Assembly (NCBI RefSeq): GCF_002803295.2
Contig: NZ_PGGB02000016.1
Location: forward strand, 1-16,844
Direction: 5' to 3'
Origin: Caedibacter taeniospiralis
GTDB lineage: Bacteria; Pseudomonadota; Gammaproteobacteria; Francisellales; Francisellaceae
DNA: 16,844 bases
Position 1 is the first letter of the stretch. Each line of letters opens with the position of its first letter. The notes beneath the pieces are model-generated. The model did no database searches and was not told the origin of the DNA. It worked only from the letters and a program-made list of their open reading frames with translations. Made by a program: the position numbers and the translations under genes. This document shows positions 223-6,526 of the stretch, in pieces.

Positions 223-1858
223 AAACTGAAGAGTTTGATCCTGGCTCAGATTGAACGCTGGTGGTATGCTTAACACATGCAAGTCGAGCGGTCTAGGAAC
301 TAGATACTAGAAACTAGAAACTAGGGGTTGAATCGCTGCGCGATGATTTATTCTAAAGAATCACCTTGCTTGGTAAGGTTCGACTTCCACTTTCTAGTTT
401 CTAGTCTCTAGTTTCTAGATAGCGGCGGACGGGTGAGTAACGCGTAGGAATCTGCCGTACAGAGGGGAACAACAGATGGAAACGTCTGCTAATACCGCAT
501 GAAGCCTGAGGGTGAAAGGTCGCGCAAGCGGTCGCTGTATGATGAGCCTGCGTTGGATTAGCTGGTTGGTGAGGTAAAGGCTCACCAAGGCGATGATCCA
601 TAGCTGTTCTGAGAGGAAGATCAGCCACACTGGGACTGAGACACGGCCCAGACTCCTACGGGAGGCAGCAGTGGGGAATATTGGACAATGGGGGCAACCC
701 TGATCCAGCAATACCACGTGTGTGAAGAAGGCCTTAGGGTTGTAAAGCACTTTAGTTCGTGAGGAAGGCTATCAGGTTAAGAGCTGGATAGTTTGACGTT
801 AGCGAAAGAATAAGCACCGGCAAACTCCGTGCCAGCAGCCGCGGTAATACGGAGGGTGCGAGCGTTAATCGGAATGACTGGGCGTAAAGGGTTCGTAGGT
901 GGTCAGATAAGTCAGATGTGAAATACCTGGGCTCAACCTGGGAGGGTCATTTGAAACTGTTTGACTAGAGTTTACTAGAGGATTGGGGAATTTCCGGTGT
1001 AGCGGTGAAATGCGTAGAGATCGGAAGGAACATCAATGGCGAAGGCAACAATCTGGGGTTGAACTGACACTGAGGGACGAAAGCGTGGGGATCAAACAGG
1101 ATTAGATACCCTGGTAGTCCACGCTGTAAACGATGAGTACTAGCTGTTGGTCCTGGTGTAAAAGGATTAGTGGCGCAGCAAACGCGATAAGTACTCCGCC
1201 TGGGGACTACGGCCGCAAGGTTAAAACTCAAAGGAATTGACGGGGACCCGCACAAGCGGTGGAGCATGTGGTTTAATTCGATGCAACGCGAAGAACCTTA
1301 CCTGCCCTTGACATCCATAGAAGACGAGAGAGATTTTGTTGTGCCTTCGGGAACTATGAGACAGGTGCTGCATGGCTGTCGTCAGCTCGTGTTGTGAAAT
1401 GTTGGGTTAAGTCCCGCAACGAGCGCAACCCTTATTTTTAGTTGCCATCATTAAGTTGGGCACTCTAGAGAGACTGCCGCTGATAAGGCGGAGGAAGGTG
1501 GGGACGACGTCAAGTCATCATGGCCCTTACGGGCAGGGCTACACACGTGCTACAATGGGCATTACAGAGGGAGGCGAAGGTGCGAGCTGAAGCGAAACTC
1601 AGAAAGGTGTTCGTAGTCCGGATTGCGCTCTGCAACTCGAGCGCATGAAGTCGGAATCGCTAGTAATCGCGGATCAGCATGCCGCGGTGAATACGTTCCC
1701 GGGTCTTGTACACACCGCCCGTCACACCATGGGAGTGGGTTGCAAAAGAAGTAGATAGTCTAACCGTAAGGGGGACGTTTACCACTTTGTGATTCATGAC
1801 TGGGGTGAAGTCGTAACAAGGTAGCCGTAGGGGAACCTGCGGCTGGATCACCTCCTTA
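223..1858 (+). rRNA. rrs: 16S ribosomal RNA, interrupted by a 126-nt intervening sequence at 293-418
   Basis: 5' end aaactgaagagtttgatcctggctcag and 3' end ggatcacctcctta (anti-SD). Universal blocks gtgccagcagccgcggtaatac (~830) and gcaacgagcgcaaccc (~1418) were read directly. Confidence 0.97.
293..418 (+). other. 16S rRNA intervening sequence at the helix 6 (V1) tip: heptamer arms plus conserved core
   Basis: By-eye alignment to E. coli 16S gives gtcgagcggt | insert | atagcggcggacgggtgagtaa. Left arm is ctaggaa ctagata ctagaaa ctagaaa (293-320). Core is 325-390. Right arm is tttctag tttctag tctctag tttctag (391-418). Confidence 0.85.
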
Positions 1859-1870
1859 AAGGTACGAGTA

Positions 1871-1898
1871 TGATGTTGAATTTTTAATGTTGAATGTT
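1871..1898 (+). other. 3' half of the 16S processing stem
   Basis: Complementary to 168-195 and lies immediately downstream of the 16S 3' end. Confidence 0.45.
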
Positions 1899-1975
1899 GA
1901 ATTTTTGATGTTTGAAGTACGAAAGAAATTAAGAAAGAGCGAGAAGTATTTGAGTGTTTACAAATGATGTTTTTT

Positions 1976-2088
1976 CTAGAGACTAGAAACTAGAGACTAG
2001 AAACTAGAAACTAGAAACTAGAGACTAGAGACTAGAGACTAGAAACTAGAATACTTCTAGAAACTAGTCTCTAGTCTCTAGTATCTAG
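1976..2088 (+). repeat. Core-less heptamer array/hairpin in the 16S-tRNA-Ile spacer
   Basis: 11 consecutive forward units (ctagaga/ctagaaa/ctagaat, 1976-2052) are followed by acttctag aaactag tctctag tctctag tatctag (2053-2088). The distal part folds back around the palindrome ctagaa-tac-ttctag. Confidence 0.9.
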
Positions 2089-2089
2089 T

Positions 2090-2166
2090 GGGTCTGTAGC
2101 TCAGCTGGTTAGAGCGCACCCCTGATAAGGGTGAGGTCGGTAGTTCAAGTCTACTCAGACCCACCA
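2090..2166 (+). tRNA. tRNA-Ile (anticodon GAT), CCA encoded
   Basis: Acceptor gggtctg/cagaccc, anticodon arm caccc-ctGATaa-gggtg, T-arm ggtagttcaagtctact, 3' acca. Confidence 0.96.
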
Positions 2167-4389: not shown

Positions 4390-4942
4390 CGGTAGGGGAG
4401 CGTTCTGTAAGCTTATGAAGGTGCATTGAGAAGTGTGCTGGAGGTATCAGAAGTGCGAATGCTGACATGAGTAACGATAAATAAGTGAGATTCTTATTGG
4501 CCGAAAACCCAAGGTTTCCTACGCAATGTTAATCAACGTAGGGTAAGTCGGCGCCTAAGGCGAATCCGAAGGGAGTAGTCGATGGGAAACAGGTTAATAT
4601 TCCTGTACCGATGGTAGTTGCGATGGAGAGACGGAGAAAGCTAGGTCTGCCTGGCGGATGGTAGTCCAGGTGAAAGCGTGTAGGTAGTGCACTTAGGCAA
4701 ATCCGGGTGTATGATGATCTGAGGCGTGAGAGGGAACAGGGCTCTACGGGGTTCTGCCAAGAGATTGATGCTCGGCTTCCAGGAAAAGCTTCTAAGCATA
4801 AATTACCATTGACCGTACTGTAAACCGACACTGGTGGGTGGGTAGAGAATACCAAGGCGATGAGAGAACCCAGGTGAAGGAACTAGGCAAAATGACACCG
4901 TAACTTCGGGAGAAGGTGTGCCTCATTAGGGTGAAGGACTTG

Positions 4943-5042
4943 CCTGACCACTAAATTCTATGATGGATGAAAGCTGTTGAGAGTTGTAGAGATAGACAAT
5001 TTGTTGATAGCCTGTTGTAGGACGTGGAATTTAGTGGTCAGG
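4943..5042 (+). other. Expansion hairpin in 23S helix 63 with no heptamers
   Basis: 16-nt perfect inverted repeat cctgaccactaaattc (4943-4958) / gaatttagtggtcagg (5027-5042). The segment is absent from the corresponding E. coli region. Confidence 0.7.
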
Positions 5043-5182
5043 TGAACGTCTGGAGCGTGAAGAGGTTGCAAATACCAGGTGGCTGCGACTGTTTACTAAA
5101 AACACAGCACTCTGCGAACTCGGAAGAGGAAGTATAGGGTGTGACGCCTGCCCGGTGCTGGAAGGTTAATTGAAGGGGTTAT

Positions 5183-5483
5183 CCTACCACTTAATTATTT
5201 TGGAGTTTGATATGTATTGTGTATACGTGATTTATTCGAAAGAATTAGATAGTTTTTACTTGTGGGTTATAGTGAAAACCTAAGGAAAAGGATTGATTCG
5301 CATAAGTCGGGTAGAAGTAGATATACAAGCCGAACGAGAGATTGGATTCTTGTCTACTACGAAGCTTACGCAAGTGAAAAGCTTGCTAGGTTAAGAGAAG
5401 CTAAATTAAAGCGAGCGAATCGAATGAGGAGTTTGTTGTATAAAGGCTTAAGAGAAGAAATATCAGAGTAATTAAGTGGTAGG
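5183..5483 (+). other. 23S insertion at the helix 68 tip (E. coli ~1870) bounded by a 15-bp stem and carrying a GIY-YIG ORF
   Basis: ggggttat | cctaccacttaatta ... taattaagtggtagg | agaagctctggatcgaagcccc. In E. coli the same hairpin is closed by gcgcaagc. The inverted repeats are 5183-5197 and 5469-5483. Confidence 0.85.
5212..5471 (+). pseudogene. Small GIY-YIG (URI-domain, YhbQ/COG2827-like) nuclease, frameshifted
   Basis: ATG at 5212 with ggag 6 nt upstream encodes MYCVYVIYSKELDSFY and stops at 5281. The rest (GYSENLRKRIDSHKSGRSRYTSRTRDWILVYYEAY...) is in another frame (5262-5471). One extra T in the T5 run at 5253-5257 would give a continuous 87-aa ORF. Confidence 0.8.
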
Positions 5484-6394
5484 AGAAGCTCTGGATCGAA
5501 GCCCCAGTAAACGGCGGCCGTAACTATAACGGTCCTAAGGTAGCGAAATTCCTTGTCGGGTAAGTTCCGACCTGCACGAATGGCGTAACGATGGCCACAC
5601 TGTCTCCATCTGGGACTCAGTGAAATTGAAATCGCTGTGAAGATGCAGCGTACCCGCGGTTAGACGGAAAGACCCCGTGAACCTTTACTATAGCTTTGCA
5701 CTGGACTTTGAGAATATTTGTGTAGGATAGGTGGGAGACTAAGAGATTCGTACGCTAGTATGGAAGGAGTCGACGTTGAAATACCACCCTGATATTTTTG
5801 GAGTTCTAACTCAGACGAGAGTCGAGGACAGTGTATGGTGGGTAGTTTGACTGGGGCGGTCTCCTCCTAAAGAGTAACGGAGGAGTACGAAGGTGCACTC
5901 GGCGCGGTCGGAAATCGCGCCAAGAGTATAAAGGCAAAAGTGCGCTTAACTGAGAGAGTGACGGCTCGATCAGGTACGAAAGTAGGTCTTAGTGATCCGG
6001 TGGTTCTGAATGGAAGGGCCATCGCTCAACGGATAAAAGGTACTCCGGGGATAACAGGCTGATTCCTCCCAAGAGTTCATATCGACGGAGGAGTTTGGCA
6101 CCTCGATGTCGGCTCATCACATCCTGGGGCTGAAGCAGGTCCCAAGGGTATGGCTGTTCGCCATTTAAAGTGGTACGCGAGCTGGGTTTAGAACGTCGTG
6201 AGACAGTTCGGTCCCTATCTGCCGTGGGCGTAGGAGATTTGAGAGGGTTTGTTCCTAGTACGAGAGGACCGGAATGAACGAACCGCTGGTGTTTGGGTTG
6301 TCTCGCCAGAGGCATAGCCCAGTAGCTACGTTCGGAATGGATAACCGCTGAAAGCATCTAAGCGGGAAGCCAGCCTCAAGATGAGATCTCCCGT

Positions 6395-6526
6395 CTAGAG
6401 ACTAGAAACTAGAGACTAGAAACTAGGAGTTGAGTCTTGCTTTGCAAGATGGGTTGTTTTTTATAAATCAATTCATCGCGAAGCGATTCAAGCTCTAGTT
6501 TCTAGTCTCTAGTTTCTAGTCTCTAG
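6395..6526 (+). other. 23S intervening sequence at helix 98 (E. coli ~2795): heptamer arms plus conserved core
   Basis: Insert lies between gatgagatctcccgt and cttaagggttgttgaagactacgacgttgatagg. 6395-6426 is the exact reverse complement of 6495-6526 (32 bp). Confidence 0.9.

Follow-up and report, generated by a model that had tools for sequence, protein, structure and literature searches.

The intervening sequences (IVSs) of bacterial ribosomal RNA (rRNA) are inserts whose origin, spread and purpose, together with the function of the S23p protein (family PF05635) that they often encode, have been long-standing questions since 1990. The classical examples, found in helices (H) 25 and 45 of the Salmonella 23S and in H9 of Rhizobiales and Rhodobacter, form hairpins, are sporadic among operons and are excised by RNase III without religation (PMC2672173). 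Two described systems come closer to the locus presented here. In Coxiella burnetii the stem of the H45 IVS contains tandem GACAGAT heptamers in strain-variable number, and RNase III cuts inside this stem (PMC4990558); in Helicobacter fennelliae and H. canis a block of homology, in part of opposite polarity, is common to the 16S and 23S IVSs, whose terminal stems measure 21-24 bp (PMC3335488). Tandem 7-nt repeats of the TAACTGA type, with patchy distribution, have also been described in Beggiatoaceae, Cyanobacteria and Bacteroidetes (PMC4679880). Here we analyze a 16,844-nt stretch of Caedibacter taeniospiralis DNA (contig NZ_PGGB02000016.1, positions 1 to 16,844, hereafter the window), in which one rrn operon carries seven long hairpin inserts and one half-remnant, all with stems built from a single 7-base repeat, CTAGARA.

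The H45 insert of this operon resembles the Coxiella IVS in its helix, its PF05635/S23p gene and its tandem-heptamer stem. It differs from it in the heptamer itself, which is CTAGARA and not GACAGAT, and in that Coxiella has one site per operon, with no relatives lacking an open reading frame (ORF) reported in 16S, the spacer, H25 or H98; moreover, the Coxiella S23p gene is degenerating, whereas that of the window is under purifying selection. The two Helicobacter species likewise combine IVSs in 16S and 23S within one organism, but without tandem-heptamer arms, spacer copies or an S23p gene, and with a 16S site at ~175 rather than in helix 6 (h6). The classical IVSs use the same 23S helices (H9, H25, H45), but their stems are idiosyncratic and not common to different sites, they occupy no more than two to three sites, and none lies in 16S or at tRNA boundaries. 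Finally, the cyanobacterial short tandemly repeated repetitive (STRR) and the TAACTGA repeats share tandem 7-nt units, the mixing of related heptamers and a patchy distribution across the same phyla, but have been described as direct arrays, with no link to rRNA inserts, inverted arm pairs or PF05635 genes. Heptamer stems and related 16S/23S IVSs are therefore already known, and the claim of a first-pass annotation of the window, that such inserts are without precedent, was overstated in view of the Coxiella heptamer stem (PMC4990558) and the shared Helicobacter 16S/23S IVS (PMC3335488). In the literature searched we found no case of one arm sequence serving seven to eight sites, with tRNA boundaries, H98 and 16S among them, no report of CTAG-heptamer arms conserved on S23p IVSs across divergent bacteria, and none that heptamer arrays generally flank PF05635 genes. 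In the locus presented here one arm sequence occupies seven to eight places within an essential operon, with comparative traces of slippage, core exchange and inversion, and its link to a widespread, undescribed type of rRNA insert would make insert origin testable.

One Heptamer Family Occupies Eight Tracts of a Single rrn Operon

The motif CTAGARACTAG is matched 44 times in the window against 0.02 matches expected from 200 shuffles, and CTAGNNACTAG 51 times against 0.11 expected. All heptamer matches fall within 293-6526, inside the complete rrn operon, and none across the 10 kb of non-rRNA DNA of the window, where CTAG as such is rarer than expected (15 occurrences against 36). The eight tracts together hold 73 CTAGs in 1268 nt, their left arms consisting of plus-strand and their right arms of minus-strand units (CTAGAAA 15, CTAGAGA 13, CTAGTTT 10, CTAGTCT 6, CTAGTAT 5, CTAGGAA 1, CTAGATA 1). 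These counts, together with the arm pairs detailed below, bear out the first-pass proposal of one hairpin family, with arms of one heptamer, at IVS-tolerant helix tips and in the spacer. The surrounding operon is intact with full Rfam matches: 16S rRNA at 223-1858, tRNA-Ile(GAT) at 2090-2166 and tRNA-Ala(TGC) at 2309-2384, both on the plus strand, 23S rRNA at 2560-6625 and 5S rRNA at 6667-6781.

Alignment to Escherichia coli rrnB (numbered Ec below) places the occupied rRNA sites as extra sequence on the tips of the conserved helices h6, H9/10, H25, H45 and H98, in agreement with the initial assignments. All elements lie on the plus strand. In 16S, the hairpin at 293-418 replaces the helix 6 tip (Ec ~76-100) and comprises a left arm of five CTAG units (293-324), a core (325-393) and a right arm (394-418), with a predicted folding energy of -66.2 kcal/mol (z -9.4). 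In 23S, full hairpins are found in H25 (3198-3342; Ec540-553; -77.1 kcal/mol, z -12.5), in H45, where an IVS with 5-unit arms spans 3955-4389 (Ec1163-1186; -149.7 kcal/mol, z -8.4), and in H98 (6395-6526; Ec2789-2805; -84.7 kcal/mol, z -15.2). The H98 arms pair over 42 nt (6395-6436 with 6485-6526) at 90% complementarity and include the 32-nt perfect complement noticed at the outset; the other arm pairs are 292-332/379-419 in 16S, 3954-3993/4351-4390 in H45, 3205-3240/3299-3334 in H25 and 2010-2044/2055-2089 in the spacer, and complementarity across the pairs ranges from 83 to 100%. RNA folding of the small hairpins gives -57 to -85 kcal/mol, with z between -6.6 and -15.2 for all of them, and none of the inserts matches an Rfam family: at the gathering threshold the Rfam scan returned rRNA and tRNA matches only, with no group I or group II intron family, and a permissive scan of the spacer added only sub-threshold miRNA-hairpin matches. 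A further tract, at 2727-2759, is a solo left-arm array of ~4.5 units, two of them degenerate (z -4.0), as the first-pass annotation had read it; it lies within a ~100-128-nt expansion of H9/H10 (about 2693-2820; Ec131-166) and is probably a remnant.

The spacer is packed with elements and tRNAs in an order that leaves no linkers. Following the 3' half of the 16S processing stem, which ends at 1964, come a hairpin without a core in the internal transcribed spacer (ITS_a, 1976-2089; left array 1976-2051 of 10.5 units, right arm 2055-2089 of 4.5 units), tRNA-Ile, a hairpin with a core (ITS_b, 2167-2308), tRNA-Ala, and a second hairpin (ITS_c, 2385-2526) that is identical to ITS_b at 142 of 142 positions. 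ITS_a ends one base before tRNA-Ile (2090), ITS_b occupies the entire spacer from the CCA of tRNA-Ile to tRNA-Ala, from TCTAGA to TCTAGA, and ITS_c begins directly after the tRNA-Ala CCA and ends at the start of the 5' half of the 23S processing stem (2527-2567, pairing with 6616-6657), so that both tRNAs are flanked by elements without linker. Canonical processing stems, not built of heptamers, are present for both 16S and 23S. This exact abutment to the tRNAs, the cores with their two orientations and two inserts without heptamers, in H63 and H68, go beyond what the first-pass annotation had described.

The H63 insert (4942-5044) adds 103 nt after Ec1729, with a stem core at 4943-4958/5027-5042 and a folding energy of -49.7 kcal/mol, and looks like a further IVS-like hairpin of a different family. 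The H68 tip insert (5184-5478) adds 295 nt after Ec1868, is bounded by 15-bp inverted termini (5183-5197/5469-5483) and contains a frameshifted small GIY-YIG nuclease gene (PF01541, E 2.4e-9), recognizable in the fragments MYCVYVIYSKELDSFY... and VGYSENLRKR....

Shared Cores Occur in Two Orientations

Four distinct ORF-less elements, those of 16S, of the spacer (ITS_b, with its identical copy ITS_c), of H25 and of H98, share a conserved core of ~70 nt, with 70-83% identity among the copies, and each whole element forms one long imperfect hairpin of 54-60 bp. Since the arms are symmetric, orientation is visible only from the asymmetric core, and by this measure the cores fall into two classes that are mutual reverse complements, 16S with H25 and the spacer with H98; the H25 and H98 cores, for instance, align with a score of 41 as reverse complements and of 16 in the same orientation. 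The coexistence of two core orientations is a signature of DNA rather than RNA. The cores show no similarity to the interior of the S23p IVS, which led us to reject the small elements as simple deletion derivatives of the resident S23p IVS. We also rejected a four-way junction for the core, as minimum free energy folds yield a single continuous imperfect hairpin, and we regard as chance two matches of the core motif GAAKCGCTKCGCGATGAWT in viral contigs, both of which lie in coding sequence without heptamers. A string search of the literature with CTAGAAACTAG, CTAGAGACTAG and their complements returned only unrelated primer and viral matches.

Pairing Is Selected in the rRNA-Sense Transcript

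In the first reading of the arms the variable unit position gave mostly Watson-Crick or G·U pairs, and the non-Watson-Crick positions of the stems are indeed overwhelmingly G·U: in the window hairpins 268 positions are Watson-Crick, 33 are wobble and one is an A·C-type mismatch, and in 14 distinct H45 stems we count 480 Watson-Crick pairs, 58 wobble pairs, 10 A·C and no C·A. These stem counts are not phylogenetically independent. As a G·U pair in the sense strand corresponds to C·A in the antisense one, this wobble bias shows selection for pairing in the rRNA-sense transcript.

A side observation concerns the third unit of the 3' arm, which is recurrently TTTCCAG opposite CTAGAGA in H45 stems (L123, L126, L128, L131, L136, L137, L139 and L142), so that an A·C mismatch is conserved ~19 bp away from the base of the stem, where the window has a G·U (CTGG opposite CTAG); this conserved position could mark a processing site.

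The H45 Element Carries an Intact S23p Gene

The H45 element contains an intact ORF of 116 aa (3998-4348), preceded by a Shine-Dalgarno GGAG, whose product belongs to PF05635 (23S_rRNA_IVP, the S23p four-helix-bundle family) with E 7e-32 and 110 bits against a cutoff of 33.8, and whose relatives in the PDB, 2GSC and 2RLD, comprise five chains each. S23p is under purifying selection: the ratio of nonsynonymous to synonymous divergence (dN/dS) is 0.07-0.13 in the nine computable pairs, synonymous divergence (dS) being saturated in the other 82 of 91. Across 11 lineages the H45 arms are 91% (5') and 81% (3') identical, and this conservation next to an ORF with saturated dS indicates that the arm sequence itself is constrained or continually regenerated, beyond what pairing demands. 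The H45 element found no match in E. coli genomes.

A Near-Identical Operon Differs in Its Elements

The elements recur at matching sites on L127, an independent metagenome contig, and this argues against an assembly artefact; the 16S h6 and H98 copies lie outside the coverage of L127 and are hence known from a single assembly. Outside the inserts the rRNA of L127 is nearly identical to that of the window except in 23S at 5712-5970, and the inserts of H63 and H68 are both present. The left arm of ITS_a is shorter in L127 by exactly 56 nt, or eight units, a slippage polymorphism of the kind anticipated in the first-pass annotation, and the spacer element differs by three substitutions. L127 further lacks 218 nt corresponding to one 142-nt repeat plus tRNA-Ala, which could reflect recombination between identical direct repeats or assembly collapse. 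Its H25 element has a different core of the opposite orientation class, 82% identical to the window H98 core and 74% to the reverse complement of the window H25 core. Together, the differences in arm length and H25 core indicate that slippage and exchange act on the elements at the DNA level, and that the elements turn over much faster than the surrounding rRNA, with this turnover following the shared arms.

Of the 104 mismatches that separate L127 from the window, about 60 are concentrated in the 260-nt 23S stretch 5712-5970 (roughly Ec2100-2360), a pattern suggestive of mosaicism by recombination or of chimeric assembly; L127 may come from a second operon in the same genome or from a related strain, or may itself be mosaic.

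CTAG-Armed Inserts Recur in Divergent Bacteria

The family is not peculiar to this genome, as H45 S23p inserts and tRNA-spacer hairpins with CTAG arms are found in many divergent bacteria. The first-pass annotation had proposed a repeat search of the genome and its relatives to see whether the family is restricted to rrn operons. Matches in the window are confined to rrn, and elsewhere a genome scan for (CTAGARA)3CTAG returned at least 120 loci in many phyla, where the arrays are common intergenic repeats. Almost all of the matches listed are intergenic arrays standing alone, in many cases with related heptamers mixed in, and only ~12% have an inverted partner within 700 nt, so that we rejected the notion that genomic (CTAGARA)n arrays are mostly hairpins. 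A PF05635 ORF occurs at six of the listed loci, adjoining the array in five and lying ~430 nt away in L073. One listed locus is an rrn operon, that of the gammaproteobacterial metagenome-assembled genome L033, with ~87% identity over the 445 nt of 16S covered; CTAG hairpins occupy its Ile-Ala spacer, its H25, its H45 (there together with S23p) and the region after 5S, and there are no inserts at H98, H9, H63 or H68. After its 5S terminator, outside the rRNA genes, L033 contains a giant CTAG-heptamer foldback (2426-2986) with arms of 33 units (235 nt) and 11 units (81 nt) and a core that has its own G/C-rich inverted repeat.

A metagenome scan for the H45 junction plus arm, which preselects for CTAG arms, identified 17 rrn loci with a 23S that is 68-91% identical to that of E. 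coli. All but one of the complete inserts among them encode an S23p ORF starting MPYH.L.VY.KAY, which is truncated in L139; the remaining one, L131, is a 117-nt ORF-less derivative of an S23p IVS. The bias of pattern-selected loci is mitigated by seven loci picked by protein similarity rather than DNA pattern, which have the same CTAG arms, and by an unbiased sample of plasmid-borne PF05635 genes, where a period-7 array lies in a flank in 10 of 15 cases and in both flanks in 7 of 15, against 2.5% of control windows. Several other plasmid PF05635 genes have period-8 arrays. The plasmid layout is usually a purine-rich array upstream and a complementary array downstream, and the genes often lie inside operons. 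On cyanobacterial plasmids, for example, the PF05635 gene separates cas6 from cas4 in Pseudanabaena and Anabaena sp. 90, and cas10 from cmr3 in Picosynechococcus; among these cyanobacterial loci, L152 and L154 have tandem 7-8-nt arrays in their flanks, both in one direction in L152 ((CTAAAAG)n and (CCAAAAG)n), and L156 has no clear periodic array.

Occupancy of several sites also recurs in other lineages, making the window the extreme case of a general pattern. L143/L144 have CAAGARA/CTAGARA hairpins in H25, in H45 and in the H68 region, a related CAGGARY-type one at the Ec402 site and a solo array after 23S; in L145/L146 the spacer hairpins consist of GGACAGA units and those of H25 of GTGACRA units; and L124 and L136 combine short degenerate CTAG-type ends at H25 with full CTAG-type arms at H45. 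The H45 IVS of Azospirillum lipoferum (L149) has GGACRGA arms. The Ile-Ala spacer is a CTAG-heptamer hairpin adjoining both tRNAs in L123, L130, L137 and L033, and a variant-heptamer hairpin adjoining both in L124 (CTCGAAA), L128 (GTGRTCA) and L131 (GAATTCT). A 16S copy was found only in the window among the loci examined. As in classical IVSs, presence is sporadic, as seen from the H25 core and arm length of L127, the missing inserts of L033 and the Ile-Ala spacers of L123 and L128.

The last two loci are identical before tRNA-Ile and near-identical after tRNA-Ala, yet their spacer hairpins are CTAG-type and GTGRTCA-type, respectively, so that one heptamer type has taken the place of another at the level of the operon or strain. 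A different kind of insert, of 916 nt, is found in the 23S of L142 (7136-8051, at Ec1931-1952), where it encodes a LAGLIDADG protein in a layout that resembles a group I intron with a homing endonuclease; the same 23S has a CTAG-armed S23p IVS in H45.

A Proposed Model for Excision and Exchange of the Inserts

With moderate confidence, we interpret the tracts as IVS-type foldback inserts that are excised by RNase III without religation, whose arms slip and whose cores are exchanged via the shared arms. Each insert is a near-palindrome of inverted arrays of one heptamer (5' arm CTAGARA, 3' arm TYTCTAG) that, in the primary rrn transcript, is predicted to fold locally into a 30-60-bp double-stranded RNA hairpin, placed at a solvent-exposed helix tip (16S h6; 23S H25, H45 and H98) or exactly between spacer tRNAs. 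By analogy with the Coxiella H45/S23p IVS, RNase III would most likely cleave within the stems, removing the inserts without religation and freeing the two tRNAs for RNase P and 3' trimming. The 16S would then consist of two pieces of ~70 and ~1440 nt and, if the non-heptamer H63 and H68 inserts were also cut, the 23S of pieces of about 638, 612, 554, 123, 916 and 99 nt; with 16S in two pieces and 23S in up to six, these ribosomes are predicted to be among the most fragmented bacterial ones known. At the DNA level, the comparison with L127 points to arms that grow and shrink by slippage in whole 7-nt units, and arm homology (25-35 bp) would let ectopic recombination or gene conversion swap cores between sites or invert them. 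In this reading the H45 insert is the gene-carrying form and belongs to a horizontally spread cassette, consisting of a purine-rich heptamer array, a Shine-Dalgarno sequence, a PF05635 ORF and a complementary array, and the ORF-less hairpins are its relatives within the lineage, equipped with the same arms. The hypotheses opened by this locus are excision by RNase III directed by the arms, gene conversion driven by arm homology and binding of S23p to the arms; on a practical level, such inserts break 16S/23S-based assembly, primers and taxonomic profiling in these lineages.

Several observations weigh against this model. The eight surplus left units of ITS_a are unpaired, and the H9/10 tract lacks a second arm. 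The junctions of the seven hairpins show no target-site duplication, the bases flanking them being complementary helix remnants, and the elements have no associated recombinase or linked transposase. BLAST of the small-element cores against 148 loci found them only in the window and L127, so that their spread is documented in one lineage only. As most (CTAGARA)n arrays outside rRNA are solo, the repeat need not imply a hairpin element. The 218-nt difference of L127 would count on the same side were it due to assembly collapse, no RNase III gene lies in the window, and the inserts could be kept as expansion segments.

This last alternative, in which the hairpins stay in mature 16S and 23S as extra helices and only the spacer copies are processed away, is the main rival among those we considered, and we nevertheless judge it unlikely. 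Every occupied rRNA site is a solvent-exposed variable helix tip, and the elements are compact, stable and self-contained hairpins, as retention would have it; the H45 element, however, has a homologue in the Coxiella IVS, which RNase III excises and which corresponds to it in site, gene and heptamer stem, and a translated ORF within mature 23S is implausible. Near-perfect double-stranded RNA of 30-60 bp also suits RNase III, being at such length its canonical substrate.

Transposition offers a second alternative. Foldback elements of Drosophila (FB) have long inverted arms of short variable-number tandem subrepeats, with or without an internal gene, and the Correia elements of Neisseria, when transcribed, form hairpins cleaved by RNase III. 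Non-autonomous transposons of the miniature inverted-repeat transposable element (MITE) type, inserted by a transposase encoded elsewhere that recognizes heptamer terminal inverted repeats, would account for terminal inverted repeats, for a conserved core in both orientations and for several copies at 70-83% identity, and CTAG is a known target of IS630-type elements. We consider such an origin improbable, as the seven junctions lack target-site duplications, the 10 kb of flanking DNA contain no copies, and no transposase is linked, the Tn3 element at 13.3-16.7 kb having no heptamer ends. In addition, H25, H45 and the Ile-Ala spacer are also occupied in distant lineages, which fits site-restricted persistence and exchange better than random transposition. 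In lacking transposase and target-site duplication and in having rRNA-restricted sites, the elements differ from foldback transposons and hairpin MITEs, and membership in these classes is not supported.

Alternatively, the arrays might serve primarily as protein-binding sites, for a pentameric S23p or for a heptamer binder of OB-fold or cold-shock type, with arm pairing being secondary. Such a role would match the ~5 CTAG units per arm to a candidate pentamer (five chains in both 2GSC and 2RLD), explain arm identities of 91% and 81% against saturated dS, far beyond pairing needs, and agree with the 7-8-nt arrays flanking PF05635 genes in 10 of the 15 unbiased cases and with solo arrays being common. 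The bias for wobble over A·C shows that pairing itself is selected, however, and heptamers differ between lineages (GGACRGA, GTCAGRA, CAAGARA) though the proteins are related, so that we give this alternative little weight as the primary function. An assembly artefact or chimeric simple-repeat insertion is hardly credible: tandem repeats and 142-nt duplicates are hard to assemble, and the ITS_a unit number and the tRNA-Ala duplication do differ between the two assemblies, but the independent L127 has near-identical elements at the same positions, dozens of independent assemblies carry related ones, and the arms are complementary within intact flanking rRNA.

Returning to the IVS-type foldback inserts, we tentatively propose an extension that we regard as possible rather than probable, in which the rrn hairpins are the most visible members of a so far unrecognised, phylum-spanning class of foldback cassettes made of a purine-rich tandem array of heptamers or sometimes octamers, an optional PF05635 gene and a complementary array. 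Such cassettes would colonize co-transcribed DNA, including rRNA helix tips, tRNA boundaries and operon interiors such as that between cas6 and cas4, would be tolerated since RNase III removes the double-stranded stem of the arms, and would spread and be homogenized through these arms, on whose ~5 units a pentameric PF05635 protein could act. If true, this would unite rRNA IVSs, S23p/Avd-like proteins and bacterial heptamer repeats of the STRR type.

Neighboring Genes

The genes 3' of the operon encode a DedA/VTT protein, a PilZ protein, RadA, an aldehyde dehydrogenase, and a Tn3-family transposase with a tyrosine recombinase. The transposase (999 aa; DDE_Tnp_Tn3, E 1e-113) and the overlapping tyrosine recombinase that follows it toward the window end belong to a separate mobile element (13326-16716) whose ends are without heptamers. 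On the minus strand at 9370-11508, an aminotransferase gene is split into a 506-aa ORF, comprising an HGLS domain and the N-terminal part of Aminotran_3, and a separate 195-aa ORF for the C-terminal part; the identical split is present on the independent Logan contig L121, and the gene may be a pseudogene or contain a programmed break.

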